From IMG/VR virus record IMGVR_UViG_3300008266_000037, positions 1 through 64,000 of that record: a DNA stretch of 64,000 nt, one strand, 5' to 3'. Numbering within the stretch: position 1 is the first letter of the stretch; each line of letters opens with the position of its first letter. The notes below the pieces were generated by a model. The model searched no databases, was not told the origin of the DNA, and saw only the letters and a list, made by a program, of their open reading frames with translations. Position numbers and translations under genes: made by a program. Shown here piece by piece: positions 7,616 through 40,820 of this stretch. The DNA is from a virus.

Positions 7616-7858
7616 ATGAACCAACAGCCAATGAGCAAGGCAATGAAGGTTTACCTTGGCATTGCTGGGTGGGTTCTCAGCATTATCGCCCTGACGCAGT
7701 CGGCGCTGATGATGCTGAGCATCAAGGGGTCTTGGGGAGACATCGCCGTTCTGGCTGGCGTCCTCCTCATCATCATGGCCGGAGCGCTCACGCTCTTCGG
7801 CATCAACAAGGGGGCTGAACTCCTCATGCCTCCGCAATCGAAGGACGACGAAGAATGA
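7616..7858 (+). CDS. small membrane protein (2 TM) coupled to SPFH gene
   Basis: Two hydrophobic helices and an acidic C-terminus. Its stop overlaps the start of the next gene. Confidence 0.55.
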   Translation: MNQQPMSKAMKVYLGIAGWVLSIIALTQSALMMLSIKGSWGDIAVLAGVLLIIMAGALTLFGINKGAELLMPPQSKDDEE

Positions 7859-10450: not shown

Positions 10451-11506
10451 ATGGCTCAACAAAAGACTTCGGACATCCCCGTTGTTTCGCCGATGGTGGC
10501 CAAGCAATGCGTCCGCGAGATGCTCAATGCTGGCTCCGCTGCGGTGCCGCCGTTCCTCTGGGGACCGCCCGGTGTCGGCAAGTCCGCCATCGTGAAGGGA
10601 GTGGCTGAAGAAGAAGGTGTCGGCTTCATCGACCTGCGTCTGGTTCAGCTCGATCAGGTGGACCTGCGCGGCCTGCCCTATCTGCTCGACGACAAGGTCA
10701 ACGAGGGCCTGCGCGAGATGCACTTCGCTGCCCCCGGCGGCCTGCCGCGCGAGGGTCGGGGCATCCTGTTCCTCGACGAGTTCCCGCAAGCCACCTCGCT
10801 TGTCCAGAACGCTGCCTCTGAGCTGGTCCTCGACCGTCGCTGCGGCGAGTACCGTCTGCCCGACGGCTGGATCGTCGTTGCTGCCGGCAACCGTCGTCAA
10901 GACCGTGCAGCCACGCAGGAACTGCCCAGCCACCTGAAGAATCGCTTCACCCATCTGGAAATCGACGCCAAGTTCGCCGACTGGGAAGCGTGGGCTCAGC
11001 TGCCGAACGCCACCAAGTGCGGCCCCATCGAGCCCCGGCTGCTCGCCTTCCTCCAGAGCAACCAGTCCCGCCTCAACAACTTCAACCCCGACACCGTGGC
11101 GTCGCCGACCTCCCGCAGCTGGGAGTTCGTCAGCCGTATCCTGCACACCGTCAAGGACAAGCGCGCTCGCAACGCCTTGATCGGCGGCGCAGTCGGCAAG
11201 GGGATGCAGGCCGAGGTCATGGCCTTCCTCTCCGACTCCGAGGACATGCCGACGATGGCGCAGATCATCGCCGACCCGATGACGGCACCCATCCCGGAGA
11301 CCCTGTCCGGCTGCAACGCCGCGCTGGACAATCTGGCCCTGACCGGCCGCCCTGAAAATGCTGAGCCCATTGCTCAGTACATCAGCCGCCACGTCGCCGA
11401 CAGCCAGATGGTCGCTCTGGTCCAGATCATGGCCCGCAAGGACATCACCTCGTGGATGTCTTCGCCCACTCTGGACAAGCTGATGAAGGCCAACGGCCTC
11501 TCCTAA
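10451..11506 (+). CDS. MoxR-family AAA+ ATPase
   Basis: Walker A GPPGVGKS. Walker B ILFLDEF. Sensor-1-like VVAAGNRR. AAA_5/CbbQ-NorQ-like layout. Confidence 0.8.
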   Translation: MAQQKTSDIPVVSPMVAKQCVREMLNAGSAAVPPFLWGPPGVGKSAIVKGVAEEEGVGFIDLRLVQLDQVDLRGLPYLLDDKVNEGLREMHFAAPGGLPREGRGILFLDEFPQATSLVQNAASELVLDRRCGEYRLPDGWIVVAAGNRRQDRAATQELPSHLKNRFTHLEIDAKFADWEAWAQLPNATKCGPIEPRLLAFLQSNQSRLNNFNPDTVASPTSRSWEFVSRILHTVKDKRARNALIGGAVGKGMQAEVMAFLSDSEDMPTMAQIIADPMTAPIPETLSGCNAALDNLALTGRPENAEPIAQYISRHVADSQMVALVQIMARKDITSWMSSPTLDKLMKANGLS

Positions 11507-11573: not shown

Positions 11574-12800
11574 ATGAGCAAACAAGAACAGCAGTACAAG
11601 GCCACGCAGTATGTGCGTGAAGCGATCGAGTCCATGATCGAGCGAGACCCCTTCTTCGGTCACATCACCGACCAGATGCGTCTGTGCCCCGACGCCAAGA
11701 AGGAGATCAAGACCATCGGCACCAACGGTCGTCTCCTCGTGTACGACAGCGAATGGGTGGTTCGTTATCGTGAGGTTTATGGCCCCGCCAAGTTCGCCAC
11801 CATCCTCGCTCACGAGGCGGCACACGTTGCGTTCGGCCACCCCTACCGCATGGGCGACAAGCGCCCCGAGATCTACGACAAGGCGTGTGACGCCGTCATC
11901 AACGGCAACCTTCGTCGCAAGGGCTATGACATGCCCAACGAAAGCTTCTTCTTTCCCGGCGCTGAGGACATGACGGTCGAGGAGTGCTACCGCAAGCTGG
12001 TGGAAACCAGCGGCGAGGGGCAGGACAAGAACAACCAGCGCACCCGACAGGCTCAGAGTAGCGGCAAGTGTTTCTCCCCTGATGTCGGCACGGATGCTGA
12101 AGAAGAAGCCAAGGCCAAGGGCGAAAGCGAAGGTCAGGGCCAAGGTCAGGGCGACGAGGACGAGGACGCCGAGGACAAGATCCGCGAGGGCGTTGCCCGT
12201 GCTGCTCAGCGTGCCCGCAAGGCTGGCAAGATGCCCGGCGAGTGGGAGCAGATGATCACCGACTCATTCCTCAGCAAGAAAAGCTGGAAGGATGAGCTGC
12301 GTCAGTTCCTCGGTGGCGGCGAGCAGAAGGAACCTTCTTGGTCCAAACCCAACCGTCGCTATGTCCATCAGGGCGAGTACCTCCCCGGTCCCTCGAAGTT
12401 CGGCCCCGGTCGTATCGTGCTGGCCGTTGACGTTTCCGGCTCTGTCTCCGGCTCTCTGGTCGAGAAGTTCTGCGCTGAGGTGCGCAAGATCAACATCGAC
12501 CTTCAGCCCGAAGCCATCGACGTTATGACCTGCGACACCCGTGTTGCATGGCAGGAGGAGTTCGGACCTTATGATGATGTCCAGATCCCTGCTAGGGCCA
12601 TCACCGGTGGCGGCACCAACTTCTCTCCTGTGTTCAGGAAGGTCAAGGAGATGGGCGTCCAGCCCAAGGCTCTGGTGTACTTCACCGATCTGCAATGCCA
12701 CGACTTCGGCGAGAGGCCTGACTACCCTGTTCTCTGGGTTGTCTGGCCCGGCGGCTGGAACAAGGCACCGTTCGGCAACATCGTTCACATGGATGACTAA
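11574..12800 (+). CDS. VWA-domain protein with N-terminal zincin-like metallopeptidase domain (DUF2201-type MoxR partner)
   Basis: HEAAHVAFGH HExxH motif. Acidic GQGQGDEDEDAED linker. MIDAS-like DVSGSVSGS in the C-terminal VWA domain. Confidence 0.8.
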   Translation: MSKQEQQYKATQYVREAIESMIERDPFFGHITDQMRLCPDAKKEIKTIGTNGRLLVYDSEWVVRYREVYGPAKFATILAHEAAHVAFGHPYRMGDKRPEIYDKACDAVINGNLRRKGYDMPNESFFFPGAEDMTVEECYRKLVETSGEGQDKNNQRTRQAQSSGKCFSPDVGTDAEEEAKAKGESEGQGQGQGDEDEDAEDKIREGVARAAQRARKAGKMPGEWEQMITDSFLSKKSWKDELRQFLGGGEQKEPSWSKPNRRYVHQGEYLPGPSKFGPGRIVLAVDVSGSVSGSLVEKFCAEVRKINIDLQPEAIDVMTCDTRVAWQEEFGPYDDVQIPARAITGGGTNFSPVFRKVKEMGVQPKALVYFTDLQCHDFGERPDYPVLWVVWPGGWNKAPFGNIVHMDD

Positions 12801-26724: not shown

Positions 26725-27150
26725 ATGGCGGATTTGCCTAGCAAACACGCCGTTCACTTCGAGGCGGTGAAGATCGCCATGAACCAGACCAAGGATGGGT
26801 GGAAGCTCATCCTTGCGGTTCACCCTAACGATGCACCCGAGGAAGTTCTTCGGGCGCTCGTTGGGGCGAGGTACATGATCGCCGCCGTTGAGTTGGATGA
26901 GCATGAGCAGCCGAAGCCCCTGTTGAGCGATGCCGAGAAGGATGTTCGGTATGCTGGTCAGCTGTGCCGCACACCCGCCTTTGCCACTTGGATGTGGAGC
27001 AGGGGCTGGGCTCAGGAGATGACAGAGGCGTCTGCTGCCGATGGCCTTAGGCTAGTGCTGGGGATCGCTTCTCGATCAGAGATCGCCACCAATGAAGATG
27101 TAAGAAGGAGATTCCGTGAGCTTGCCCAATCCTACTTGGACGATAGCTGA
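26725..27150 (+). CDS. hypothetical protein overlapping integrase start
   Basis: 141 aa. 35-nt overlap with int, in the position an xis-like gene would occupy. No clear HTH. Confidence 0.45.
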   Translation: MADLPSKHAVHFEAVKIAMNQTKDGWKLILAVHPNDAPEEVLRALVGARYMIAAVELDEHEQPKPLLSDAEKDVRYAGQLCRTPAFATWMWSRGWAQEMTEASAADGLRLVLGIASRSEIATNEDVRRRFRELAQSYLDDS

Positions 27151-27952
27151 CCTGATCAGCTCATACCGGGGCAGTCGGCACAACCGGCTTCTTGCTCCGG
27201 CCACCCGAAGAAATACCGAGAAGACCTACCGATGGCTGGAACCGTTCAAGGACCGGCTTCTGGACACCATCACCAAGGCTGAGATAAGCACGGTTATCGA
27301 CGGCCTGCCTGCTGGCAACGCTCACATCTTTCTGTCCCGCGTTCGCGCTTTGTTCAGCTACGCTCGCTCGCTGGAAGAGATGACCAAGGACCCCTGTGTA
27401 GGCCTCACCACGCCTGCTACTGGTGAGTACCGACCTTGGACCCAGAAGGAAGTAGACGCCTTCCTGAAGGGCTCCAGCGACACTGTGGGCATGGCTGTGA
27501 AGCTGGCCTATTACACCGGCCAGCGGATGAGTGATGTCCTGACCATGAAGTGGAACGACATCCGGGACGGCGGTCTGGATGTTGTGCAGATGAAGACGAA
27601 GCAGCCGCTTCACATTCCCCTGCACCCTAAGCTGAAGGCCGCCCTGAAGAAGCACTCTCAGGGCAGCAAGTCCGATTACATCATTGCCATGAAAGACGGC
27701 AGGCCCTACACCCCGCATGAGTTTCGTGGTCGTTTTCGGGACACCCGCATCGCTCTTGGTTTGCCCGACGATATGGTGTTCCATGGGCTTCGCAAACTGA
27801 CGGCGGTCAACCTCGCCGAGAAGGGCGCCTCTACGCAGGAGATCATGGCTGTTGGTGGGTGGAAGTCCTCTCGCCAAGTGGACCACTACTGCAAGGGGTC
27901 TAATCAACGTAAGCTGGCCAAGCAGGCCATTGGAAGACTGGGAGCCCTGTGA
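27116..27952 (+). CDS. int: tyrosine integrase/recombinase
   Basis: R in YYTGQRMSDV. HxxR in FHGLRK. Catalytic Y in VDHYCK. GTG start after AAGGAG. Confidence 0.8.
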   Translation: MSLPNPTWTIADLISSYRGSRHNRLLAPATRRNTEKTYRWLEPFKDRLLDTITKAEISTVIDGLPAGNAHIFLSRVRALFSYARSLEEMTKDPCVGLTTPATGEYRPWTQKEVDAFLKGSSDTVGMAVKLAYYTGQRMSDVLTMKWNDIRDGGLDVVQMKTKQPLHIPLHPKLKAALKKHSQGSKSDYIIAMKDGRPYTPHEFRGRFRDTRIALGLPDDMVFHGLRKLTAVNLAEKGASTQEIMAVGGWKSSRQVDHYCKGSNQRKLAKQAIGRLGAL

Positions 27953-29200: not shown

Positions 29201-29277
29201 GCGCCCTTAGCTCAACTGGATAGAGCACCAGCCTTCTAAGCTGGGGGTTTCAGGTTCAAACCCTGAAGGGCGCGCCA
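29201..29277 (+). tRNA. tRNA-Arg (anticodon TCT), CCA encoded
   Basis: Manual cloverleaf. Acceptor GCGCCCT/AGGGCGC. D-arm GCTC-AACTGGATA-GAGC. Anticodon arm CCAGC-CTTCTAA-GCTGG. T-arm TCAGG-TTCAAAC-CCTGA. Discriminator G + CCA. Confidence 0.85.
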
Positions 29278-29279
29278 AT

Positions 29280-29355
29280 GTGCCGGGTGGTCCAACTGGT
29301 AGGGGCGCCCCGTACGCGGAGGAGGTGGGGGTTCAAGTCCCTCTCCGGCACACCA
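29280..29355 (+). other. tRNA-like element (canonical acceptor, D-loop, T-arm and CCA; anticodon arm does not fold canonically)
   Basis: Acceptor GTGCCGG pairs with CCGGCAC, then A + CCA. D-loop AACTGGTA. T-loop GGTTCAAGTCC. Possible pseudo-tRNA or attP core, 2 nt after the tRNA-Arg. Confidence 0.45.
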
Positions 29356-29368
29356 ATCCACGGAAGCT

Positions 29369-29584
29369 ATGCGAAAGAACTCTGCCCTCCCTAGGCTGAT
29401 TGCCCGCCTCCAAGAAGGCCCTCTAAAGGGAACCGACTGGAGACAATGCTCTCACAGTCAGCACACCCTGTATGAGAACATCCGCAGGCTTCGGTCTATG
29501 GGGTGGGACATACGGACGATAGGGGATTCCGGTAGGCCCGGAGAGTATATCCTTATAGCCCCGCCTGACGTTCCAGTTCCCTGA
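29369..29584 (+). CDS. hypothetical small protein (possible DNA-binding)
   Basis: 71-aa ORF ending convergently against the giant gene. Confidence 0.35.
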   Translation: MRKNSALPRLIARLQEGPLKGTDWRQCSHSQHTLYENIRRLRSMGWDIRTIGDSGRPGEYILIAPPDVPVP

Positions 29585-32500
29585 TTTGCTGGATGGTGAG
29601 GTTCATGAGAACCTGCTCTTCGTCACGCAGCTGCTTAACGATGGCCACCTTAGAGGCGTCGTCCATCTGAGGGTCCGTTTGGACCTCTCTAATCTCTCGC
29701 CTCGTCTTGATGCGTTCGCGCTCCATGTCAGCCGCGAAGTCGTAGATCATCATCCGCTCGGGACTGCGGGCCAGCAGACTGTTCACCGCCTCGTAGTTGC
29801 CTTCACTCTCGAACTGATCGACAGACCTACCGAACTGAAGGTAGGGCGTGATCAGCTTGTCGTAAGAGGTGCGGATAGATGCGCCACTGACATTGCCGCC
29901 AAACGACCTGTAGAGCGGCCAGTCTCTTGCGGCCAGCTCTCTTCCCTCAACGGCCTTGCTTTGCGGATCAATGGCAAAACCCATCAGGTTCCCGACCCTT
30001 CCAACAAACCGGCCCATGCCGCCAAGGTATGCCCCGGCCATGTGGTCAATGTCGTCGGGGTGAACCTCAATAGCGCCGGGGGTGTAGGCACTATCCCCGC
30101 CAGTGAGGCGAGAAGCCACGTCAGCAATGCCTTGGCTGGTCTGAGATGTTGACGGGAAGAACGACTGAGAGGCTGGCTGCTCAAGGCCCGGCATACCGGT
30201 CGGGTGAATGGGCTTGCCAGTGAAGTCAGTATTTACAGCTGTTTCGACCATAGGTCTGAACACAGACGGGAAGATGGCAGACACCCAACTTCCGTTGGTG
30301 CCGAAGGGGTTGAACGCCGACAGGACGGAGGAGCCCGTTTTCATAGCAGCATCCAACGGACCGCTCTTGCCCATCGCTACGCGCGCCATGTTCCGGCCAG
30401 CGGTATGGAAGACATTGTACCCAAGCGGCATGGGGATCTTCAGATAGTTCCCGCCTCCCAGCATGATGACCATGTTCTTCTCAAGGATGTAATCCTCGAT
30501 CTTATCGTACTCGCTGGTGCCGTATTCATCCTCTGGCGAGAGAGCCGACATAAGCACCTCTTGCAGAACGCCAGCGACCATGATTCCCATGATCACCTTT
30601 TGTACGCGAGGACTGGTCGCCGCCTGCATGAGAGTGGCGGTGCCTTGGGTGGCAGCGTTGAAGAACATATAGGCCGCGTTCATGTACGGCCCCCACTCCC
30701 CCTTGCGGTTGAAGTTGACAGTCATGTCCTTAGCCGCCTGAGCCGCGCGCTCCTCGCTCCAGCCCTGCTCCCTGAAAGCCTCAAACACGGCTAGACGGGT
30801 AGCCCCCTCAACGGAATCGTTGAGGTCTTCCAGATACTTAAAGCCCTTGCCTATTGCCTTCATGGATAGCCGGAGAGCCTTGGCCCCGGCGTTCTTGTCC
30901 TGCGGGTCAATGTCGTTCAGCTCTCTGGTGATCTGCTGCATCTGGTCCTCAATGGAGGTGAGACCATACACACCAGTCAGGCCACCAAGCTCAGACAGCC
31001 TGTCCATTTTTGCCTCAAGGACCGGGTCTTTCTTGCCCAGCCTCTCGCCTACCGCTTGACCGGCATAGACCATAGCCTTCTTGCTGATCTTCTGCCACGC
31101 ATCCGGGCTGTACTGACCAGACTGGATCATGGCCGCCTGCACGTCACGCAGGAAGTTGGCGACAAGGAACTCAGGGTTATATGATGTCTGCAACTGAGAC
31201 ATCAGGCGGGTCAGCCTCGCCATGCGGGACAAGATCAGGTCAGGGAGTGAACCCCCAAAGGACTGAATCTTCGACAGGCTGTCGCCCAGCCTCTTGTTCT
31301 TGACCTCAAAGATAACGTCCTTGCCGTTTTCTTTTGTGACGAAGTAGTTGGGGTCTCCCTTTACGTCCTTCGGACTCATCCGGGTCTTACCGTTCACGAC
31401 CACGCGCTGCATGGGGTGAGCGGGAAGTTCAACCAGATAGTCTTTGGTGAGTTCAGGGTTGTCACGGACGAACCGCGCGAGAGACTGACCGACCCTGACC
31501 TTCTCGCTTCTAACGATAGCCTCTTGGTTCTGCATGATCACGTTGGCCAGCATGTCGCCAGCGTAGGTTTGGCGACCCTTCATCGCCCGGTCTTCTTTTC
31601 CTCCGACCTTGTATGCCTTGCCGGTTCTGGCGTGCTCATCTCCAGTGAACCAGTCCTCTGCCGTGTTGCCGACAGCAAACCCTCTCAGTGGCACATAGTG
31701 TTTGAAGCGGGGCACAAGGGGAGACACGATGTCATCCCACTTAGGCGACAGGCCGGAGGTCTCTCTGGTCTTCCTTGTGTAATCCAGAATAGCATCGACC
31801 TTACTGGCAGCTGCCTCGACCTTGCTTTGCTTAGAGTAGCCGTCGAACCAGTCCATGATGGCTGCGGCTTCCTCGTTGGTCATGCCAGAGCCTGCGTCCA
31901 GCATCTCGTCGGTGATCTCTCCTGTGTCAGGGTCAATCTCCTTGGCCTTCCGCACTTCCTCAATGAACTTATTTCTCTCGGGCGCATGGCGGGCGTAGAG
32001 GTACAGGTTTAGAACGGCCTCCGACGGGTGGACGTGGGAGCTTTCCAGCTCTAGTCTGGCGGCGTTTGAAACACTGGACAGCTTTGCAAGGTCAGCCTCG
32101 GTCGCGCCAATCTGGTGGATAGCAAGGTAAGCCGGGCGCCACAGGTTCTCGTGTGCCTTGTCCATCTTATGCTGAGAGCGGCGGGTATAGAGGGTGTCGG
32201 CCAGAACGGGGTCGTTGGTGTCAGTCACCCGACCGCCAAACTTCGCCACCTCGGAAACCATCCTACGAACCGGGAACATCCGGTCTTGCGCCAGCGTCGT
32301 GGCCCTGTCGATAGCATCCCTAGCGTCAGCCTCAGCAACCTTGATCGGGCTGACCCTTGTTCCTTTGGCAAGATAGTCCTGCACAATGGTGTAGCGCGCT
32401 GCCATTTCCGCAGCACCAGACCCACCCATAGCCGCTACCTCAGGGCTTGGGCCTCCGATGGTCTTGCCTGTGGTGGACATTGCCGCATCGAGGGCGTCAA

Positions 32501-35500
32501 GGTCAGCCTCAGTCATCCCGCGAGGAAGGGTCGCTCCCTTGGAGTACAGGCGGAAGCCCTCTCCGTTAACGACCTCCCGCATCTTGGGAGTGATGTGGAA
32601 GGTAGGGGCGTCAAGGGTTCTGGCAGGCATTACCCCGCCTGTAATCGGGTGGTCGCCTTCTGGAATGTCAAACTGTCGATTGTTAATCTGCGCCCCGTAA
32701 GGCTTGATCTCCTTGCCGATTATGGATGTAATCACATCGTCGTAGAACTTGCCGACACCCTTTACAGACTGGTCATTACTGTACCGTTCCACTTGAATGT
32801 GTCCCGGCGTCCAGCTGATCTGGGTAATGCCGTTGTCAATAGCATCCAGAATGATGCGTCTGGTGGCCAGCTTAACCCATGCGTTATTCTTGAAGGGAGC
32901 TTCCGGAGGGGTGTCATACACTTCAAGAAGCTGAATCTTGTCGTATTCCTCTTGGGCTTTACGAAGAGAGAAGCGAATCGCCTCAGCAGCCTCGTGCGTC
33001 TGTCTATCTGGCCAGTACTTATAGTTTGAGGCGCGCGTGAATCTGGACAAGACATTGTGTTCGCCGGTCCGACTAAAGTCTGGGGGCTCGGCCATGTTAT
33101 TTTCGTAGAACTCAATGGCCTTTTCCTTTTCAGCCTGCAAGATCCTTTTAGCCTCAGCGACTTTTACCTCAACAATGTGCGAGCGGCGCAGGCGCTGGTG
33201 CCAGTCAGACTGGATTTCTTCAATGAACAGGGTTGGAACGCCGTTAACGTCATCCCTGATCTTGTAGCGAACGTGAGCCAGCACGTTGTACTCTCTGAAG
33301 TGCTCAGTGGCCCTGAAAGCCACTGGACTCAGCTTCGGGTTTATTGAACCCGGAATAGTGATCAGTAGTTCTGTCTCGGTGTGTCCTCCACGAAGTGTGT
33401 AGTTGCTGTGGTTGGCAACCAACCCGTCGTCTACCGTGTAATCGTTATACGTGTCCCACTCAGCAGCCGATGTCATCTTTTTGGCGACGTAACCTTCAGC
33501 CTGCTCTCGGTCCATTTGGCGACCGTCCATGTCCAGCTCATCCATAAGCTCTTGAACCATGGCGTCGAACATCTCCTTGTCGACAGGGTCTTCGATAGAC
33601 CCCGGACCCCTCTTGATGTCCTCCAAAACAATGTTGTTTTCCTCAAAGAACTCCTTCAACTCCTCAAGGGTCATGACCTTGTCAGGGTTTTCCTTAAGCA
33701 GGTCAGTAAACCCAACCCAATCCATCTCGTCCTTGGTCACGCCCGGCTGTGACTCAAGGGTCTTCAGCCATTGCTGAGCGGTGGCCTTCTTGGTGGTCTG
33801 GGCGTTGATGACCTGACCAAGGCGGGAATGAATACGGGCTCCAGCGTAAGAGAAGCGTCGGTCAGAAATGCGGGGGATGTTGTCCGGACGAATGCCAAAC
33901 GGGTCCACAAAAGACGCCATCTCCAGCATCTCATCGGCCATGTCATTGAGACCAGCCGCCCTGTTCTTCTCGGCCAGAGCCTGAAGGTTTTCGATGGTCT
34001 CCAACGGGGTAAAGCCGTTGCGGGAGTTGTAGTGAGACACGCCAGAAGCGGCAGCCTTCTTGGCAGCGATCTGAGCAAGAAGAGCGTTCTTCTCGTCCAA
34101 AGTCATCGAGATACCAAGGTTCTCGTTCACATCTACCGTGCGCCAAGGGGCATTACGTAGGCGCTCGGCTGGCGTCATGTTAATGCGCGACTCTGTGTTA
34201 CGCGCCTCCATCTCTCCATAGAGAGATTTGTAGACCGCAAAGTTTGTCGCCCGCTTGTATATGTCCGACATGTTGGAGGGGGGAACACCCATGACACTCA
34301 AGGCGCCCATAAGGTGCTCAACACTCTTGATCTGCGATGGGGTGTAGGTGGACCGTTCAGAGCCTACAGCCTTAAAGAAGCCGTCAATGTCCTGATTTTT
34401 TGATAGGGTTACCAGCTCCTTATTGACGGACTCAAACCGACGCCTGACCGCCTCACTCACCGTGGCAAGAGAAGGCATCCTGTTGGGGTTTCCGCCCCCG
34501 GCCATTCCCTCAAATGTCTGGATAGCGTGCTGGATTTCATGCAGCAGGACGGCTCTTATGGTTTCAGCCTCTTGAATGAGAGGCACGCCCCCCTTCCCGA
34601 CGGCAATCAAAATCCTATCAGGCGGCTCTCCGGTGCGAACTGGCGTCATGGCCGCGTTGCCCACAGTGAAGGAGCTGCCATCGTTTGTCTCGTCGGCAAA
34701 CTCAACCGTAACGTTTCTTAGGAAGGGGTAGGCCTCAAACAGCTCAGGATGATCCAGCACCTCTTCAATGGTGGAGTATATGGACGGACTCAGAACGCCT
34801 TGTTTCTGGCGGATGACAGCAAGGTCGCCGCGCAGATCAGAAGCGTTTGCAACAGGCTTAAGTCTGGAGTCATTGTCGCTGATCTCATAGCGAGGTTTCC
34901 CGTCAGGACCACGGAACCAACCGGTGTGCAGATAGATGGTGCCGCGAGAGTCGCCAGCCTTCTCCATCTTGAGGAACTTGGCGTAGTTGTCCCGTGGTGG
35001 GCGCTGGGATTTGGTGCTGGCAAAACTGAAGCGGCGGTCGGAAGGAACGGGAGGTTCCGCAAAGGGAAGCATGACCTCTTCACGGGCGGCAATCTTAAGG
35101 TTAGAGCCGGGAACGTTGTAAGGCTCCCTTCTTCTCACATTCCTGCTATCGAGAGTTCTTCTCCCTTCAGTGCTAAGCGCCTCCGCTTCGGCTTGCTGAG
35201 CATCAGCGGGCCAACCCTCCATCTGTCTGACGGCAAGCTGCGTCTGCCTGAGAATGGCCGAAACAACCATCTCTTCTTCCGGTCGGCTGTCGGCTCTTTT
35301 GGAAACGCCAATAACAATCCTGTCTGGGAGGGTTTGTCCGTCCCCGGAAACCATAAGAGAGCCGTCAGGCTTTTTAAGCGTGAACTCTACGGGAAGTGGA
35401 GCTAGTCCCGGATAGGCCTCAAACAACTCCTTGTGCTTGAGGACATCTTCAAGAACTTCATAAGTAGAGGTGGCGTTGGGACCGGCCTTGGCAATCCTTT

Positions 35501-38500
35501 CCCGGATTTCTTTTGGCCAGTAAGCATGGCGAAGCCGGGACTTAGCATCGCTGATCGAATGGCGAGGCTGACCGTCACCACCTCTATACCACGCCGTCTC
35601 CTGATAAATCTTGCTTGGCCGCTCTCCAGCCTTCTCCATCTTAAGGAACTTGTCGTAGTCCTCTTTCTGGGAGGACATAGATCTTGCCCCAGTAAGCATG
35701 AAGCGACGGTCAGATTTTCGACCGGCCATGTCTTCTTCGCCACTAAGGTAATCCAGGTACGCGCGAGTGGTGCTGTGATCAGCTGCGTCGTAACCGCCCT
35801 CAGAGAACATCTTGTCCGTTTGAGTAAGAACCTCCTTTAGCAGCGTGTTAGCGCTAGGCTTAAGCCCCATCAGTTTCCGGACCCAGTCCACAAACTTATC
35901 CCACATAGACACAGGAGGGGCTCCCCTCTCTGCTCGGCCAAGAGGCTTGCCCTTAGCGTCTATGGTCTTCATGAATGCCTGAGCGTCAGGGTCCGTAAGG
36001 GCCCAAGACACAAACTCATCGGGGTGCCCAAACATTTCAGACGCCCAGATCTGGCCTCTTGGGTCAGCCGCAGGGTGGCTGAGAAGGTGCTTGTGGTCCT
36101 TGTTAATAGCCCCCCCAAAGACATCCCAGAGCCTTTTGATCTCGTCTATGGATTCTTGCGCATTGGACGGAGAAAGGCCAGCCAGCTCTCTGTTTCTCTC
36201 GGTCGCCATCGAGAGCGTGTGATATCTTGACCCGACAAACGCGTGGATCAGCTCATGGAGAATAATATCCTGAGAGTCCTTAGCGGCGGGGTCTAGAGCG
36301 ATCTCAGCGGAAGCCATGCGGTACGAACCAAGAAGCCCGCGCAAAGGTCTGACGCCTATTGTCGTTCGGCTGCCGACACCGCCGTTGTCCAGCATCTTCC
36401 CTGCAAGGGCCTTGAACTCGGGGCTCTCCCCATTAACGGCAATCCAGTTCAGGACTTTGTTGGCTTCTCCGGTTTGGACCGCATCAGAAAGAGACCCCCA
36501 CACCGAGGCCCTCGATTTGGTCGGCAGACCCGCCGCAACGATTGAGGCCCCAAGGCCAACAAGGAACTGCCTGCGAGAGGGGTCGGCGTACATCCTCTGG
36601 TCAGCGCCGCTCTGGTCTTGACGAGTGCGGGCTCCAACTTCTCCGCTCATAACCTTGGTGAGCACGCTGTCAGCTCGCTGCATCTTCAGCAGCTTCTTGA
36701 AGAACTGGACAATCCGGTTCATCAGGCCGGTGTAGCGGGCGCCAATCTTACCGCCGGACTTATACCAGTCCTTGGTCATCTCAGCGACAGCCTCCTCAAC
36801 GATAGCATCCATGTCTGGATTGCCGTCATCGTTAAGGTAGGTGTCTCTATACTTCTCGTTGGCCCACTGGAGGTAGGTGTATTCCTTGCCGTCCATCTTG
36901 CGTGAACGGACTTCCTTGCCAAGGACGTTCCACTCCTGAGAGGTGAACTTACCCAGTCTGCGCAAGGCATGGATAGCCTCGTGATGGAGGGTCTCCATCA
37001 TCTTGGCGAGGTTCTCAGCGTCAGAAAGGTTGGGGTCGTAAGCGTCCCTAGAAAGGGCAATCAGTACCTGTATGGACCGACCTTCGCTGTCCCGATCAGA
37101 GGTCTCAGCGTAGCCAGCCGCGCCTTCGTCAAGCTGCCCTTCCACCTTGAGGATGGTTTCATCACTCAGGCCCAGCTCTTTCAGGGCAGACTTCAGCGCC
37201 TTCTCTTGGCGGGCATCGCGGCCAGCAGTCTTGTTCTCTGGCGTGGTCTGAATATCAGGAGCGGGGGCGGCGGCTGTGCCTTGCTTTGCATCCAGCCATT
37301 CCTGAGCCTTCTGCCGGGTCGGGAACGTGTGAACAACATTCTCTCTCGGGGCACCATCAGTGTCCGCTGTCGTGTCCATGACGGTGCCGTCAACAGGAGA
37401 CAGGCCGGTCCTTACCGGAGCAGCCACCTTTTCCACCACGGCAAACGCAGCGCGGCCAGTCTGGGCCCTAGCGACTTCAAAATCTGCTTGCTGAAGCTGT
37501 GACTCAAGAGCGGCCCTAGCGCTGTCCATCGCCTCCACACGAGAGGCGGGCCAGTCTTCTCCTACTTGAGGGAGGGCAGCCAGCTTTCTCCTGATATCGT
37601 CAGCCCGTACTCTGGCGGCGTCGAATCTGGCTTTGATGGCTTGAGGTGAAGGGCCTTTCGATGCTCCTTCTGCGGTCGGTTCTTGAACCGGGATGGGCTT
37701 GATGTACAGCTCTGTGCCTTCGCCGGGGCCTGCGACCTCTGGCGGTTTGGCGGCTGTACTTTCATAGACCGGTTCCTTGTTTGTTCTGGTCTTGCCGTTC
37801 TTGAGTTTGGTGGTGGTCTCGTTAACGCCAACCTTCTTGATGAAGCCACGGCGCTCAAGGATTTTCAGCGTGTCTGCCGGACGGGGGATGCCCTTGTCCT
37901 TCAGCATCGAAGGAGTCACAGGACCAGCCTCAGCGGACCGAATAAGCTCAGCGCCCATCTCGGGGGTGAACGGATCAGCGGTCAGCTGGCTTTCGGGACG
38001 GGGGCGAACAGGATCGGGAAGCGGCTTCGGCATACGCTTCTTGCCAGCCCTTGCTTTCTCTATCGCTTGAACGCGATCCTGCTGTTCGGCAAGCAATGCC
38101 TCATAGTTGCCCTGAGCCATCTGGTCCAGAACTGGGGCAACCTGTTCCCGCCAAGAAACCTGATCCACCGCAGAACGGGTGGACGCTGGCATGGGGGGAA
38201 TGTTTTGTGGGGGAACTCTGTCGTAACCAATGTACCCGGCTGGCCCGCTATCAACGGGAGAGGGCTGAGGTTGCGCTGCTTGACGCTGACGGCCCCATCT
38301 TCTTTCGTTGATGGCGTCCCGAATCATGTCGTCCCGGAGCTGGGCCTCACCAGCACGAGGAGCATTCAGGCCACCGGCAACACCGCCGATGCCACCGCCC
38401 ATGATGCCGCCAAGGACACCGCCCTGAAGGGCTGCCGTTCCCACACCCTCCATAAGGTTCTGGTTGGAGTCTAGGGTTCTCTCTGCCACGTTAGAGAAGA

Positions 38501-39359
38501 ACTGCTCTCCACCGGATTGGATAGCTTCTTCAACACCCTCAGAGAACACGCCCTTCGCCGCGCCGCCAAGAGCCCCTCGGCTAAAGATGTCTCCAGCAGC
38601 ACCAGACAGAAGGGATCTTTCAAACCCACCCATCAATCCGCCAGTAACCCCAGTAAGGGCGCCAGATGCCATTGATGGCAGAACGGCAGCTCGCTCCGCC
38701 TCTGCTCTGGTATAGCCTTCAGCCATCAGCCTTTCGACTGTGGACTGCTGAGACATAAGGGAGCCTTGAATGCCTTCTGCCGCAGCCATGCTCAAAGCGG
38801 CAGCCTTAGGGGTCAGTCCCATTCCTCTGGCAGCAAGGCCTGCGCCACCGGGGACAATCATGGACGGAAGGGACTCAAGCCCCATACCGATCAGGTTATC
38901 AGCGTCATACCAAGGGGCGTTCTCCCGGTTGTATTGACGGGCTTCTGATTGCTCATTACGGGCCGCGTCTCCAGCGACATCGCCGAGCAGGCCGAGCGCG
39001 TTGAGCTGACCGCTAAGGGTGAGAGGATTGTAGTCGGTTCTGACACCCGACGTGTCCACCCCAAACAGGCCAACAATACCCCTTGCCATAGAAGCTGGGT
39101 CGTTCAGCAGGCCGGGCAAGGCAGCGAGGCCGGACCCAAAGTCCAGCGCTCTGTCGCCAATCAGGTCTCCGATACCACGGTCTGGTCTAGAGCCCGGTCC
39201 TTGAGGGGTGGAGGTTAGATACCCAAGAATCTCGGTATCTGAATAGCCCTGTTCTCGGGCTTGGACAACTTGCGGCCTACCGTTGGCGGCAAGGTACTCT
39301 ACGATCTCTGCGTCGGAATACCCTGCGGCTCTTGCCTGGGCAATCTTAGGATCGGCCAT
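29553..39359 (-). CDS. giant virion-associated polyvalent-type protein (3268 aa) with three zincin-like HExxH motifs
   Basis: Uninterrupted 9.8-kb ORF closing the late operon. N-terminal GYSD(A/T)EI(V/L)(E/G)YL repeat x2, then a Gly/Ala-rich glycine-zipper region. HExxH motifs HHEAIH, HELIH and HEIQH. Internal ~224-aa duplicated module starting SDRRF. Confidence 0.85.
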   Translation of the reverse strand: MADPKIAQARAAGYSDAEIVEYLAANGRPQVVQAREQGYSDTEILGYLTSTPQGPGSRPDRGIGDLIGDRALDFGSGLAALPGLLNDPASMARGIVGLFGVDTSGVRTDYNPLTLSGQLNALGLLGDVAGDAARNEQSEARQYNRENAPWYDADNLIGMGLESLPSMIVPGGAGLAARGMGLTPKAAALSMAAAEGIQGSLMSQQSTVERLMAEGYTRAEAERAAVLPSMASGALTGVTGGLMGGFERSLLSGAAGDIFSRGALGGAAKGVFSEGVEEAIQSGGEQFFSNVAERTLDSNQNLMEGVGTAALQGGVLGGIMGGGIGGVAGGLNAPRAGEAQLRDDMIRDAINERRWGRQRQAAQPQPSPVDSGPAGYIGYDRVPPQNIPPMPASTRSAVDQVSWREQVAPVLDQMAQGNYEALLAEQQDRVQAIEKARAGKKRMPKPLPDPVRPRPESQLTADPFTPEMGAELIRSAEAGPVTPSMLKDKGIPRPADTLKILERRGFIKKVGVNETTTKLKNGKTRTNKEPVYESTAAKPPEVAGPGEGTELYIKPIPVQEPTAEGASKGPSPQAIKARFDAARVRADDIRRKLAALPQVGEDWPASRVEAMDSARAALESQLQQADFEVARAQTGRAAFAVVEKVAAPVRTGLSPVDGTVMDTTADTDGAPRENVVHTFPTRQKAQEWLDAKQGTAAAPAPDIQTTPENKTAGRDARQEKALKSALKELGLSDETILKVEGQLDEGAAGYAETSDRDSEGRSIQVLIALSRDAYDPNLSDAENLAKMMETLHHEAIHALRRLGKFTSQEWNVLGKEVRSRKMDGKEYTYLQWANEKYRDTYLNDDGNPDMDAIVEEAVAEMTKDWYKSGGKIGARYTGLMNRIVQFFKKLLKMQRADSVLTKVMSGEVGARTRQDQSGADQRMYADPSRRQFLVGLGASIVAAGLPTKSRASVWGSLSDAVQTGEANKVLNWIAVNGESPEFKALAGKMLDNGGVGSRTTIGVRPLRGLLGSYRMASAEIALDPAAKDSQDIILHELIHAFVGSRYHTLSMATERNRELAGLSPSNAQESIDEIKRLWDVFGGAINKDHKHLLSHPAADPRGQIWASEMFGHPDEFVSWALTDPDAQAFMKTIDAKGKPLGRAERGAPPVSMWDKFVDWVRKLMGLKPSANTLLKEVLTQTDKMFSEGGYDAADHSTTRAYLDYLSGEEDMAGRKSDRRFMLTGARSMSSQKEDYDKFLKMEKAGERPSKIYQETAWYRGGDGQPRHSISDAKSRLRHAYWPKEIRERIAKAGPNATSTYEVLEDVLKHKELFEAYPGLAPLPVEFTLKKPDGSLMVSGDGQTLPDRIVIGVSKRADSRPEEEMVVSAILRQTQLAVRQMEGWPADAQQAEAEALSTEGRRTLDSRNVRRREPYNVPGSNLKIAAREEVMLPFAEPPVPSDRRFSFASTKSQRPPRDNYAKFLKMEKAGDSRGTIYLHTGWFRGPDGKPRYEISDNDSRLKPVANASDLRGDLAVIRQKQGVLSPSIYSTIEEVLDHPELFEAYPFLRNVTVEFADETNDGSSFTVGNAAMTPVRTGEPPDRILIAVGKGGVPLIQEAETIRAVLLHEIQHAIQTFEGMAGGGNPNRMPSLATVSEAVRRRFESVNKELVTLSKNQDIDGFFKAVGSERSTYTPSQIKSVEHLMGALSVMGVPPSNMSDIYKRATNFAVYKSLYGEMEARNTESRINMTPAERLRNAPWRTVDVNENLGISMTLDEKNALLAQIAAKKAAASGVSHYNSRNGFTPLETIENLQALAEKNRAAGLNDMADEMLEMASFVDPFGIRPDNIPRISDRRFSYAGARIHSRLGQVINAQTTKKATAQQWLKTLESQPGVTKDEMDWVGFTDLLKENPDKVMTLEELKEFFEENNIVLEDIKRGPGSIEDPVDKEMFDAMVQELMDELDMDGRQMDREQAEGYVAKKMTSAAEWDTYNDYTVDDGLVANHSNYTLRGGHTETELLITIPGSINPKLSPVAFRATEHFREYNVLAHVRYKIRDDVNGVPTLFIEEIQSDWHQRLRRSHIVEVKVAEAKRILQAEKEKAIEFYENNMAEPPDFSRTGEHNVLSRFTRASNYKYWPDRQTHEAAEAIRFSLRKAQEEYDKIQLLEVYDTPPEAPFKNNAWVKLATRRIILDAIDNGITQISWTPGHIQVERYSNDQSVKGVGKFYDDVITSIIGKEIKPYGAQINNRQFDIPEGDHPITGGVMPARTLDAPTFHITPKMREVVNGEGFRLYSKGATLPRGMTEADLDALDAAMSTTGKTIGGPSPEVAAMGGSGAAEMAARYTIVQDYLAKGTRVSPIKVAEADARDAIDRATTLAQDRMFPVRRMVSEVAKFGGRVTDTNDPVLADTLYTRRSQHKMDKAHENLWRPAYLAIHQIGATEADLAKLSSVSNAARLELESSHVHPSEAVLNLYLYARHAPERNKFIEEVRKAKEIDPDTGEITDEMLDAGSGMTNEEAAAIMDWFDGYSKQSKVEAAASKVDAILDYTRKTRETSGLSPKWDDIVSPLVPRFKHYVPLRGFAVGNTAEDWFTGDEHARTGKAYKVGGKEDRAMKGRQTYAGDMLANVIMQNQEAIVRSEKVRVGQSLARFVRDNPELTKDYLVELPAHPMQRVVVNGKTRMSPKDVKGDPNYFVTKENGKDVIFEVKNKRLGDSLSKIQSFGGSLPDLILSRMARLTRLMSQLQTSYNPEFLVANFLRDVQAAMIQSGQYSPDAWQKISKKAMVYAGQAVGERLGKKDPVLEAKMDRLSELGGLTGVYGLTSIEDQMQQITRELNDIDPQDKNAGAKALRLSMKAIGKGFKYLEDLNDSVEGATRLAVFEAFREQGWSEERAAQAAKDMTVNFNRKGEWGPYMNAAYMFFNAATQGTATLMQAATSPRVQKVIMGIMVAGVLQEVLMSALSPEDEYGTSEYDKIEDYILEKNMVIMLGGGNYLKIPMPLGYNVFHTAGRNMARVAMGKSGPLDAAMKTGSSVLSAFNPFGTNGSWVSAIFPSVFRPMVETAVNTDFTGKPIHPTGMPGLEQPASQSFFPSTSQTSQGIADVASRLTGGDSAYTPGAIEVHPDDIDHMAGAYLGGMGRFVGRVGNLMGFAIDPQSKAVEGRELAARDWPLYRSFGGNVSGASIRTSYDKLITPYLQFGRSVDQFESEGNYEAVNSLLARSPERMMIYDFAADMERERIKTRREIREVQTDPQMDDASKVAIVKQLRDEEQVLMNLTIQQIRELERQAGL

Positions 39360-39377: not shown

Positions 39378-40820
39378 TTAGTCGCCGAGTATCGAAGAAA
39401 GCGGCGGACGGTTCTCCGTAGATCCTACACGAGCTGGCGCTTGACCTGAAGTCGTGGTGGGCCGAACAGGACCGGCGAGACCAGCCGTTGCAGCTCTTTG
39501 AGCTTGAGCAATGATCTCTTCTTCTGTGGCTGGCCGGTATTCCGTGCCGGGAGACCCGTCCAGCTTAGGACGCTGAGCCCGTTCTTGACCAGCTCTTGAA
39601 GCTGCCGCGTAAGCGCCCTGATACAGGGTTGCGTATCGCTCTTCTTCTGATTTGCTTTCCCAGCGACCAGCGGCGATTTCCTTGTCTCTAAGAGCAGCAG
39701 CTGCTGCCCTTGCCAAAGCAGCTTCGCTTGAGGTGTGTTCTCTGTTGAGCCTGTTCTGCTCAATGTTAACGTTAGCCGCTGCGGCAGCATCCCGAGATCT
39801 GGCACCGCCGAGGGTAAGTTCAGAGGCGTTGCTGAAGGCTCCCGCTCTAGCCGCAAGATCACCCCTGTAGATACCAGAGGCTGCCTCAAGAGAGGCTCGG
39901 GCCTGCTGCTGCTCAGCCTGACTGCGGGCCAGCTGAGCCTGAATGACGCTCTGCATCAAGCCGCGCTCTTCCTCTTGAATGCGGTCACGAGAGCTAAGAC
40001 CCGCAGCCCCACCAGCCGCAAGGGCAGACATGAAGTTCGGGGTTCGGGCAGACATCATTGCAAGGCCAGCATCCATTAGGGCCCGGCCCCTGTTAGAGCC
40101 CCGCTCTCTATCTTCTTCGACCTGAAGGCGAGACAGAATCTTAGCGTAAGGCTCTGTCGCGTCAGGCATCATGTTGGCGATGTTCGCGTAATGGTCCTGA
40201 ATGTTTCCGGCCTCAGCAGGAAGCCCGAGCGCCCCAATGATTCTGTCGCCCAGACCCATAGCGTCGTTAGCAATGTTTTCCGGGTTGGAGAATCCGTTGG
40301 GAAGATCTGGAGCGGGCGGCGGTGCGGGAGTTTCAGGGGGGGCAACCCCGTCAATAGACGCCCCTTCCGGGGAGTAGTGAAAATGCATTCCAGACCCAAC
40401 ATTGTGTCTGAGCAACTCACCGGCAGGGAGCCCTGCTCTGGCAATGCTCGCAGCTGCACTGGCTAGAGTAAGGCCGGGGTCGACAAAGTCCCATGCGTCA
40501 CCGCCATTGCGGGTGTGCCATGAGTTAGGAACCCCGCCGACCTGAGCGTTTCTTTCAGGCGTTCTGTAACCAGAGGTGAACCGGGCTTGCGGAAAGATGC
40601 CGCCAAGTGTTTCCCTAAGCTGCCTTGAGCGCTCGCTTTCCCCCCGAACAGGACCGCCATCAGCAAAGCCTCTAGGCTTACCGCCCCTCAGGGCCGCTCT
40701 CCGCTGAAGTTCATTCATGACAACCTGCAAGGGCGCCATACCGGAGGGACGCTGAAGTTCTTGCACAAGCTGGTCGTCGGTAAGCCTCTCAACCAGAGAG
40801 GAAATCTGCATCATTTCCAT
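39378..40820 (-). CDS. virion protein with peptidase M15 (murein endopeptidase/VanY-like) domain
   Basis: Motif SGYRTPERNAQVGG...SWHTRNGGDAWDF. C-terminal Ala/Arg-rich coiled coil. Confidence 0.7.
   Translation of the reverse strand: MEMMQISSLVERLTDDQLVQELQRPSGMAPLQVVMNELQRRAALRGGKPRGFADGGPVRGESERSRQLRETLGGIFPQARFTSGYRTPERNAQVGGVPNSWHTRNGGDAWDFVDPGLTLASAAASIARAGLPAGELLRHNVGSGMHFHYSPEGASIDGVAPPETPAPPPAPDLPNGFSNPENIANDAMGLGDRIIGALGLPAEAGNIQDHYANIANMMPDATEPYAKILSRLQVEEDRERGSNRGRALMDAGLAMMSARTPNFMSALAAGGAAGLSSRDRIQEEERGLMQSVIQAQLARSQAEQQQARASLEAASGIYRGDLAARAGAFSNASELTLGGARSRDAAAAANVNIEQNRLNREHTSSEAALARAAAAALRDKEIAAGRWESKSEEERYATLYQGAYAAASRAGQERAQRPKLDGSPGTEYRPATEEEIIAQAQRAATAGLAGPVRPTTTSGQAPARVGSTENRPPLSSILGD

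Follow-up and report, generated by a model that had tools for sequence, protein, structure and literature searches.

The window analyzed here is a stretch of 64,000 nucleotides (positions 1 to 64,000) from the virus record IMGVR_UViG_3300008266_000037 of IMG/VR. Its minus strand carries a giant ORF of 3,268 amino acids (aa), which is predicted to encode a polyvalent, ejection-type virion protein and to be the last gene of an ejection-protein operon. The protein matches the Pfam domains LPD38 (once) and LPD23 (twice), its last ~900 aa match PHROG families of giant phage proteins, and its final 923 aa have homologs among the giant proteins of Stx-converting, Vibrio, Ralstonia, and Burkholderia phages. 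The genes adjoining the ORF match DNA-ejection protein, M15 peptidase, and endolysin-like families, and from gene position and homology we infer that the giant protein is present in the virion and ejected into the host. The protein has three zincin domains of its own. Its exact sequence has no record in public assemblies, and nothing in the phage collection closely matches the window DNA. The features of the ORF that are discussed below are, in the direction of translation, as follows.

29553..39359, minus strand: giant ORF, 3,268 aa (ORF list and translation)
36969..36983, minus strand: upstream HEAIH, the first zincin motif, aa 793-797, 136 residues ahead of the twin arginine (RR) (sequence)
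36495..36581, minus strand: predicted Tat-type signal peptide, aa 927-955, PSRRQFLVGLGASIVAAGLPTKSRASVWG (sequence; profile scores)
36561..36578, minus strand: twin-arginine core S928-R929-R930-Q931-F932-L933 (sequence; fits the family consensus)
36522..36566, minus strand: h-region F932-P946, FLVGLGASIVAAGLP, uncharged and Ala/Gly-rich (hydropathy)
36507..36521, minus strand: c-region T-K-S-R-A, aa 947-951, with basic K948 and R950 and a predicted signal-peptidase site S-R-A / S952 (sequence)
35712..36494, minus strand: passenger of the signal, aa 956-1216, a zincin-like metallopeptidase domain of gluzincin type (HExxH...E motif; zincin fold)
36243-36257, minus strand: HELIH, aa 1035-1039, the zinc motif of the passenger domain
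36015-36017, minus strand: E1115, the third ligand of the passenger zincin, a downstream Glu
30540..30596, minus strand: aa 2922-2940, VIMGIMVAGVLQEVLMSAL, the protein's sole hydrophobic segment of membrane grade, within the conserved C-terminal unit (19-aa Kyte-Doolittle window, 1.99)
29931..30512, minus strand: LPD38 domain, aa 2950-3143, in the conserved C-terminal unit (Pfam PF18857, E = 1.8e-41)

The initial annotation had placed a complete Tat-type signal peptide ~930 residues into the giant protein, at 36497-36578, which agrees within 3 nucleotides with the position of the quoted peptide at aa 927-955. The S-R-R-x-F-L motif, the hydrophobic h-region, and the AxA-like cleavage site that it described can all be read in the sequence, the site taking the form S-x-A. 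The two arginines are encoded by CGC AGG at positions 36570-36575, and the core motif is complete, with V next to L933 rather than the K of (S/T)-R-R-x-F-L-K. The uncharged run spans 17 residues (QFLVGLGASIVAAGLPT), within the ~12 to 20 residues expected of an h-region, and aa 933-945 form the most hydrophobic 13-aa window of the entire protein (2.13). The 19-aa hydropathy of the signal is only 1.05, which is below the value of 1.6 taken for a membrane span. Small residues occupy the -3 and -1 positions of the cleavage site (S949-x-A951), which is followed by S952. An excised 300-aa segment scores 17.1 bits with the NCBIfam model TIGR01409 against a cutoff of 16.7, a margin of 0.4 bit, and the Pfam model PF10518 (TAT_signal) gives 16.3 to 18.4 bits, under its gathering score of 22.7. 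The peptide differs from an ordinary Tat signal in its location, with the RR at residue 929 of 3,268 in a continuous ORF. AF2 models the signal as an isolated helix (pLDDT of ~50) outside the folded domain, and the confidently folded domain begins ~5 residues past the predicted cleavage site. The second HExxH domain had been described as lying immediately downstream of the signal, which is true of the start of the domain and not of the HELIH motif itself, which lies 106 residues past the RR.

The passenger domain has a zincin fold, which resembles those of polyvalent proteins and of the N4-like vRNAP (BFVD), and its catalytic H, E, H, and E are invariant across the 61 sequences of the domain family. 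It matches chain G of PDB entry 9sfn (9sfn_G, E = 7.5e-21), and in tblastn it finds phiNV3 gp38 and phiKMV gp37. The gp16-like proteins of T7-/phiKMV-like phages (phiKMV gp37, phiNV3 gp38, PDB 9sfn chain G, and PhiM1 gp48 8vb2) carry the homologous zincin-like domain in their N-terminal third, followed by a long C-terminal region, and their genes stand at the end of the ejection-protein operon, as here. In contrast to the window protein, they are 1,300 aa long without long N-terminal additions, and no Tat-like segment lies ahead of the domain. The homology of the window protein to the gp16-like proteins covers the zincin domain only, and the C-terminal region of phiNV3 gp38 has no phmmer match among the 112 relatives of this domain described below. 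The conserved unit formed by the zincin and the C-terminal region is a probable relative of the gp16-like ejection proteins. A second comparison is offered by the zincin-like metallopeptidase (MPTase) domains of polyvalent proteins, for which roles in autoprocessing or as effectors have been proposed (Iyer, Burroughs, Anand, de Souza, Aravind 2017, PMC5512222). These share with the window protein a giant, multidomain, phage-packaged context and the HExxH...E core. Unlike them, the present family has no match to the Pfam MPTase-PolyVal models at E <= 0.1 among its 61 members, and its Pfam matches are weak SprT-like ones only, found in 7 of the 61 with a best E value of 0.0079. Signal peptides, Tat, transmembrane segments, and the periplasm go unmentioned in the same paper.

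By itself, the motif in the window protein is only modestly improbable, since a strict rule, which requires RR-x-[FLIVM]-[LIVMA], an uncharged stretch of at least 12 residues, and a hydrophobic window in this order, is satisfied 0.054 times per shuffle of the 3,268-aa protein. A full HMMER search with the downstream domain against 1.84 billion protein representatives recovered 112 relatives of the ~250-aa zincin, nearly all of them in proteins of 1,500 to 6,800 aa. An RR followed by an uncharged hydrophobic stretch is found 15 to 75 aa upstream of the domain in 59 of its 106 copies, and the RR dipeptides are Tat-like in 63 of 96 cases in this upstream zone versus 35 of 946 elsewhere (Fisher p = 8e-51). 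This conservation among homologs confirms, at the level of prediction, the reality of the signal, and the proposal of a Tat-type peptide ~930 residues into the protein is borne out by the Tat hallmarks, all of which are conserved throughout the family. The members share the consensus V-[ST]-R-R-x-F-L-[A/K/R]-G, and the h-region contains 36% Ala and 14% Gly. AxA is present in 44 of the 61 family signals (72%) versus 28% of controls, and in 47 of them (77%) the charged residue that first follows the h-region is basic (K or R). TIGR01409 is matched by 27 of the 61 members and PF10518 by 23 (E <= 0.1). In addition, the N-terminal part of the family profile weakly retrieves true Tat signals in the PDB, including the NapA signal peptide, AioB, MelC1, and DyP peroxidase. 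The signal lies where a variable N-terminal part meets the conserved unit, which comprises the zincin and the ~900-aa C-terminal region. No membrane-grade segment lies upstream of the signal in 51 of 59 homologs, and in the window protein every 19-aa window ahead of residue 929 stays below 1.6. At the position of aa 2922-2940, the homologs have a segment of "ARR + 25-37 uncharged residues", and the hydrophobic segment trails the RR by a median of 1,032 aa in typical homologs and by ~1,990 residues in the window protein.

Capture of a host gene for a secreted metalloprotease, one of the two origins put forward by the initial annotation, was not upheld as a recent event. The GC and GC3 contents of the signal-zincin module equal the gene average, and this absence of an anomaly speaks against recent capture. 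The unit is old and widespread in giant phage proteins, and those of its relatives that lack the Tat signal are ejection proteins of phages. The stand-alone Tat-secreted zincins that such an origin would lead one to expect were absent from the 1.84 billion representatives, the word-indexed searches, 185,579 species genomes, and plasmids. The full HMMER search returned giant proteins or truncated pieces only, with no stand-alone secreted form. A word-indexed search with the single segment gave no match, and one with the 61-sequence profile gave nine proteins only, mostly fragments from short contigs. Among the 185,579 GTDB species genomes, 12 pattern matches were found, none of which was confirmed as a stand-alone Tat-secreted relative, and no plasmid matched. 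A metagenome scan yielded three loci only, two of which match the L003 contig and the third the L005 contig. No cultured phage carrying the Tat segment was found by tblastn in 50,697 phage records, which contained Tat-less versions only, in phiKMV-like phages, T7-like phages of Ralstonia and Limnohabitans, and Vibrio phage 1.205.O.

Bacterial Tat signals (TIGR01409 and PF10518; NapA, TorA, SufI, and AmiA/AmiC) resemble the signal described here in the S/T-R-R-x-F-L motif, the short Ala/Gly-rich h-region, the basic "Sec-avoidance" c-region, and the AxA-type site. The passenger here is likewise a metal-binding enzyme that could fold before export, and AmiA and AmiC of Escherichia coli, which are Zn-dependent cell wall amidases, are Tat substrates. 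Unlike bacterial Tat signals, the signal here lies hundreds to thousands of residues into a phage virion protein with a very large C-terminal remainder, and its export is a prediction. To our knowledge, the internal Tat signals known so far belong to membrane proteins, in which preceding Sec helices bring the signal to the membrane. The actinobacterial Rieske protein (Streptomyces Sco2149) is such a dual Sec/Tat substrate, in which an internal twin-arginine signal directs Tat transport of the following domain (PMC13186574). Rieske-type proteins thus share with the window protein a twin-arginine signal that is not N-terminal. They differ in having Sec-inserted transmembrane helices ahead of the signal, whereas the ~926 upstream residues here contain no membrane-grade segment. 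Tail-anchored proteins integrated by Tat (HybO, FdnH, and others) were reportedly described by Hatzixanthis et al. in 2003. Their order of Tat signal, passenger, and hydrophobic segment near the C terminus is common to the typical homologs here. In contrast to HybO and FdnH, 250 to 300 residues trail the hydrophobic segment here, and the segment is hairpin-like with an RR flank.

The same unit of signal plus peptidase in dozens of distant giant phage proteins suggests an injected phage protein that may use the host Tat machine. In the reading that we prefer, aa 927-955 would be a genuine Tat-type signal under selection, forming one evolutionary unit with the ~250-aa zincin, and the host Tat system would move the peptidase to the periplasm; we give this close to an even chance. 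The giant protein would travel in the virion and enter a Gram-negative cell at the onset of infection, and the twin-arginine motif, once cytoplasmic, would be bound by the host TatBC receptor. The N-terminal extension need not bar this binding, since a Tat signal enters the membrane as a loop and keeps its N terminus in the cytoplasm. Precedents for internal Tat signals and for the loop mechanism are the Streptomyces Rieske protein and Fincher et al. 1998, both as summarized in a review (PMC13186574). The folded, zinc-loaded peptidase domain would be carried to the periplasmic side by host TatABC, and signal peptidase I would cleave past S949-R950-A951. Release in soluble form into the periplasm would need a second cut at ~aa 1216, the likely agent of which would be one of the protein's own three zincin domains. 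The upstream zincin (HEAIH 793) was rejected as a general processing enzyme, as this motif is not conserved and most homologs have no HExxH ahead of the signal. The other origin suggested by the initial annotation, a processed fragment reexported to the periplasm, fits the evidence and is the favored reading. It is a tenable, if tentative, proposition that the internal signal either drives the reexport of a prefolded zinc peptidase to the periplasm of the just-entered cell or threads the middle of an ejectosome inner-membrane protein across the membrane. No paper on an internal Tat signal and zincin reexport by a phage protein was found in the literature.

Several findings speak against export. 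The signal is 926 residues from the N terminus, and no conserved internal start was found. Its PF10518 score falls short of the gathering threshold, and its margin over the TIGR01409 cutoff is 0.4 bit only. A further ~2,050 residues (~225 kDa) trail the passenger zincin, among which no cleavage site was identified; left uncut, the chain would be larger than any Tat cargo known to us. The upstream zincin, which might have exposed the signal, lacks conservation. Since ejection proteins arrive at the envelope from the outside, a domain in the periplasm would have no obvious need of Tat, and the Tat-less homologs (gp37 of the phiKMV-like phages and the giant protein of Vibrio phage 1.205.O) work without a signal.

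An unlikely alternative is that the segment is a Tat-independent membrane helix or anchor that seats a gp16-like ejectosome part in the cytoplasmic membrane, with its arginines obeying the positive-inside rule. The Tat-less relatives of the domain are indeed gp16-like internal virion proteins assigned to an inner-membrane complex, the signal stands at the start of a conserved C-terminal unit that has another hydrophobic segment, and Tat signals are able to insert unaided into membranes (Hou et al. 2006, as cited in the review PMC13186574). However, the pair ahead of the zincin domain is RR in 59 cases versus 12 for KR (4), RK (7), and KK (1) together; a positive-inside flank would mix K and R, and the preference for RR indicates TatC-type recognition rather than a flank of this general kind. 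The S/T-R-R-x-F-L consensus is moreover complete. Across the family, the median uncharged run is 16 aa long and the median 19-aa hydropathy is 1.09, with only 2 of 61 members reaching the membrane-span value of 1.6. AxA and a basic c-region trail the stretch, and curated Tat-signal HMMs are matched.

It is rather improbable that the signal is a vestige without present function, left by an ancient in-frame fusion of a Tat-secreted zincin preprotein to a virion protein. Such a fusion would agree with the way in which signal and domain shift as one unit to very different positions: the family signals are all internal, with the RR anywhere from residue 55 to residue 5123, and the RR-to-HExxH spacing is constant at 106 to 145 aa. 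It would also agree with the loss or degradation of the signal in several lineages. Yet in 59 of 106 copies all physicochemical features are kept at ~26% identity, and the residues of the h-region themselves vary freely. The decayed relics (RG in place of RR, or charged residues in the h-region) occur in scattered lineages nested within the Tat-positive superclade, indicating that the motif decays when it is not needed and that an unused signal erodes fast. In addition, no stand-alone secreted ancestor or relative was found.

Docking at the Tat receptor without transport is a doubtful explanation. By tethering the injected protein to TatBC, the signal would either exploit this receptor as a landmark in the inner membrane or block host Tat export, and the peptidase would not be exported. 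The sequence evidence for TatC recognition serves this explanation equally well, and the very large C-terminal remainder would hamper full translocation; on the other hand, the enriched AxA and the basic c-region typify cleaved, exported substrates, and docking needs neither.

A separate gene product, made by a translation restart at M923 (MYADPSRRQFL...) as an ordinary preprotein with an N-terminal Tat signal, is very unlikely. An ATG does lie six codons ahead of the RR (36591-36593), and the homolog P0018 is called as a separate 1,143-aa gene with the RR at residue 55, behind a 1,283-aa ORF. However, the GAGG abuts the ATG with zero spacer, no promoter-like site is nearby, and a Met within 8 residues upstream of the RR is found in 14 of 61 homologs versus 19% expected (p = 0.25), which shows no enrichment; an internal start at M923 was rejected on these grounds. 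The split of P0018 occurs on a single contig, its homology to a fused relative (P0024) continues past its first start codon into the upstream sequence, and a good ribosome-binding site is lacking. P0018, at most a candidate stand-alone case, was left out of the evidence. Chance resemblance in a long Ala/Gly/Arg-rich protein, which the shuffle rate and the Pfam score under threshold would allow, is exceedingly improbable and is refuted by the comparative data, with 59 of the 106 domain copies carrying the motif in the equivalent place and Tat features family-wide.

Tat signals are textbook N-terminal devices of cellular preproteins. The family described here conserves a complete predicted Tat signal that lies hundreds to thousands of residues into soluble, putatively virion-packaged phage polyproteins and is always joined to a zinc peptidase. 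If the export reading is true, injected phage proteins would send an enzyme back out to the periplasm via the host export machine, and a Tat signal would act from deep within a soluble polyprotein, providing phage effectors with a route to the periplasm. This would add a new compartment for polyvalent effectors, which have so far been discussed as cytoplasmic only (PMC5512222). The zincin domain of gp16-like ejection proteins, which is enigmatic in function, would be placed on the periplasmic side, and studies of Tat would acquire a natural system in which to test internal-signal recognition and cargo limits.

The giant gene is the last of an operon that includes a member of the "DNA ejection protein" family and an M15 peptidase-domain protein, and its product carries a Tat-type signal far from its N terminus. 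The features concerned are as follows.

29553-39359, minus strand: giant ORF, 9.8 kb, 3268 aa
36495-36581, minus strand: Tat-type peptide, residues 927-955 of the giant protein
39378-40820, minus strand: gene for the 480-aa M15 protein (Peptidase_M15_3 domain; endolysin-like PHROG match), directly upstream of the giant gene

The window is phage DNA throughout, coding for a primase/helicase, an ERF recombinase, an integrase, endonuclease VII, and ejection-type proteins, and the 480-aa M15 protein probably serves this phage as its peptidoglycan-cutting ejection protein. The giant protein contains two LPD23 domains and an LPD38 domain, and the matches of its C-terminal ~900 residues are PHROG families of giant phage proteins and, at ~30% identity, giant proteins of Stx-converting, Vibrio, Ralstonia, and Burkholderia phages. 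The phage collection holds no near DNA match to the window, and public assemblies hold no record of the exact giant protein. Its N terminus matches DUF7626 weakly and bears a tandem repeat (aa 12 to 48; 39216-39326, minus strand; AGYSDAEIVEYLAANGRPQVVQAREQGYSDTEILGYL) in which the motif G-Y-S-D-x-E-I-x-x-Y-L occurs twice. An adjacent pair of tRNA-Arg genes (TCT and ACG anticodons; 29201-29277 and 29280-29355, plus strand) lies ~200 nt past the giant-gene stop codon, near a tyrosine-integrase gene (27116-27952, plus strand), and together these could represent a prophage end or a phage-borne tRNA set. Elsewhere, an AAA ATPase gene (10451-11506, plus strand) is followed by a gene for a DUF2201_N putative metallopeptidase with a VWA-like (DUF2201) domain (11574-12800, plus strand), and an SPFH/Band 7 gene lies at 7855-8718.

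The twin-arginine core of the signal, S928-R-R-Q-F-L933, is followed by 17 uncharged residues (QFLVGLGASIVAAGLPT) and a c-region of K-S-R-A, then S952. No other 13-residue window in the entire giant protein is as hydrophobic as residues 933 to 945. The best 19-residue hydropathy window of the segment reaches only 1.05, and the sole membrane-grade segment of the protein lies at residues 2922 to 2940 (19-residue score, 1.99). Pfam TAT_signal scores the signal at 16.3 to 18.4 bits, under the gathering score of 22.7, and NCBIfam TIGR01409 scores the excised segment at 17.1 bits, barely over the cut-off of 16.7. The Tat-type signal that the initial annotation placed inside the giant protein is real in the sequence; by itself it is only modestly improbable, with the strict rule-based motif occurring 0.054 times per shuffle of the protein.

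A full HMMER search of 1.84 billion representatives with residues 900 to 1230 returned 112 relatives, nearly all 1500 to 6800 aa long, and many alignments start right at the twin-arginine motif. The downstream domain (~250 aa) was located with an iterated local profile, giving 106 copies with sufficient upstream sequence, and in 59 of them RR, with an uncharged hydrophobic stretch after it, lies 15 to 75 residues upstream of the domain. Of the RR dipeptides in this upstream zone, 63/96 are Tat-like, compared with 35/946 in the rest of these proteins (Fisher p = 8e-51); as the basic pair, RR occurs 59 times, KR 4, RK 7, and KK 1. By these sequence counts, the signal is conserved as one unit with the downstream domain. 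Aligning 61 modules (A1; mean column identity, 26%) gives the consensus V-[ST]-R-R-x-F-L-[A/K/R]-G, in which RR is invariant by construction, as members were picked for it; the 59/106 count and the Fisher test are free of this bias. The A1 h-region is 36% Ala and 14% Gly, the uncharged run has a median of 16 residues (range, 9 to 26), the first charge past it is K or R in 47/61 members, and AxA falls within the expected window in 44/61 versus 28% of random windows from the same proteins. TIGR01409 matches 27/61 members and PF10518 matches 23/61 (E <= 0.1), and over its N-terminal portion the A1 profile picks up, though weakly, genuine Tat signals in the PDB (those being the NapA signal peptide, AioB, MelC1, and a DyP peroxidase). 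Four independent viral contigs (L004, L007, L008, and L009) carry ORFs of 2292 to 2672 aa, unbroken at the DNA level, with the signal at residues 949 to 1557. In one subfamily (P0058, P0059, P0063, P0065, P0066, P0068, P0099, and P0104), a motif a few residues past the h-region, [TV]-[LV]-G-[KR]-A-[KQ]-P-[IL], is strongly conserved and could be a mature N terminus or a processing site.

An AlphaFold2 model of the signal and zincin segment, with A1 as input, has a mean pLDDT of 87.7, with residues 929 to 942 as a detached helix (pLDDT, ~50) and the domain starting at about residue 955 (pLDDT, >95). H1035, E1036, H1039, and E1115 are invariant in A1. Structure comparison puts the passenger with the zincins: Foldseek matches the domain to minigluzincins in the PDB, and the fold matches in BFVD are polyvalent proteins, the N4-like vRNAP, and the T7-like internal protein D. 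The sequence profile matches residues 315 to 560 of PDB 9sfn chain G, "Internal virion protein" (E = 7.5e-21), and with tblastn the domain aligns to phiKMV-like gp37 and phiNV3 gp38; these three share the zincin domain but lack the Tat-like segment. In a 2026 preprint on a phiKMV-like phage, gp43, the gp16 homologue, is placed in the ejectosome's inner-membrane complex and termed the most enigmatic ejection protein.

The RR-to-HExxH spacing is 106 to 145 residues in all 61 modules, and the RR itself lies anywhere from residue 55 to residue 5123. Its distance from the C terminus clusters at ~1150 to 1350 residues independently of total length, which places the signal where a variable N-terminal part meets a conserved unit made up of the zincin and ~900 C-terminal residues. 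The tail of the window protein is unusually long (2339 residues) because extra domains are inserted. By sequence, the C-terminal units sort mainly into a family of 60 proteins and one of 24, and the smaller, LPD38-type family includes the window protein. In a rough neighbour-joining tree of 108 domains, a Tat-less basal group, containing phiNV3 gp38 and a group from metagenomic hits, stands beside a large superclade with the signal. Tat-less tips are also nested inside this superclade, several with decayed remnants (e.g., TRGDFLSGVATEAAAK and SRRDDLADVAAR). The retention of all features at such depth, with visible decay where the signal is lost, argues from sequence for purifying selection.

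Other features of these proteins were observed. Some have two zincin copies (P0014, P0019, P0039, P0083, L020, and L041), and P0001 has three matching stretches; the signal precedes only the first copy or stretch in P0014, P0019, and P0001, an RRDFL signal precedes the second copy in P0039, and P0083, L020, and L041 have none. In the C-terminal unit, ~250 to 300 residues from the C terminus, a conserved A-R-R with 25 to 37 uncharged residues, often with a central G-L-P-G (P0003, P0014, P0021, P0022, P0025, and others; window aa 2915 to 2940, about 30540-30617, minus strand), looks like a helical hairpin or re-entrant membrane segment. Downstream of the zincin domain, S-D-R-R-F-[M/S], resembling a twin-arginine core without an h-region, occurs three times at domain starts, two of which open LPD23 domains.

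35700-35714, minus strand: first copy, aa 1216-1220
35028-35042, minus strand: second copy, aa 1440-1444
33852-33866, minus strand: third copy, aa 1832-1836

The exact motif is confined to the window protein among 113 proteins examined and might be a processing or recognition site.

Tentatively, we favor a functional Tat signal. The giant protein would be delivered into a new host, its internal signal would be recognized by TatBC in loop fashion, the folded Zn-peptidase would be transferred to the periplasmic side, and cleavage after S-R-A951 would be the work of signal peptidase I; release of a soluble enzyme would also require cleavage on the C-terminal side of the domain, for which one of the zincins of the giant protein would presumably be responsible. 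AmiA and AmiC, Zn amidases exported by Tat, are precedents. Two more come from the review PMC13186574, namely the Streptomyces Rieske protein, which has an internal Tat signal, and the loop mechanism (Fincher et al. 1998), and MPTase domains have been proposed to autoprocess polyvalent proteins after injection (PMC5512222). The large C-terminal remainder, the lack of a mapped cleavage site, the existence of Tat-less homologues, and the origin of ejection proteins outside the cell weigh against this scheme. Of the re-exported processed fragment initially proposed, the Tat-type signal holds up (59/106 copies); export and processing, like every step beyond a selected Tat-type signal, we infer.

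A Tat-independent membrane helix is unlikely, and a typical membrane span was rejected, since one would call for a longer, more strongly hydrophobic h-region and the basic pair here is specifically RR. Somewhat less probable is a vestigial signal, given that all features are kept at depth and decay is visible where the signal is lost. It is doubtful that the signal instead docks to or blocks TatBC. Internal initiation is highly improbable, and a stand-alone gene was rejected, since a conserved Met and a ribosome-binding site are absent before the signal. Chance resemblance, for which the shuffle frequency alone leaves some room, is practically negligible beside the concentration of Tat-like RR upstream of the domain.

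The captured host secreted-metalloprotease gene of the initial annotation does not stand as a recent event: composition is unremarkable, and none of the collections searched yielded a stand-alone secreted relative. The upstream HExxH domain was also rejected as a conserved partner. On one contig (L002, 3445-11432; ENA ERZ26871208:contig_245583_np1212), a relative of the fused homologue P0024 (2672 aa) is represented by three ORFs (1285, 74, and 1143 aa), the third of which begins ~50 residues ahead of the Tat signal. Either the gene is truly split and its signal lies near an N terminus, or the assembly contains a frameshift.

Neither Tat signals in general nor internal ones are new. The foundational polyvalent-protein paper mentions no signal peptides, Tat, transmembrane segments, or periplasm (PMC5512222), and full-text searches found no paper that mentions twin-arginine together with polyvalent proteins, with internal virion proteins, or with phage ejection proteins. 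No earlier description seems to exist of an internal Tat signal conserved within soluble phage polyproteins that are packaged in virions. Since no cultured phage with the signal-bearing form was found, the window itself is a useful starting point for experiments.
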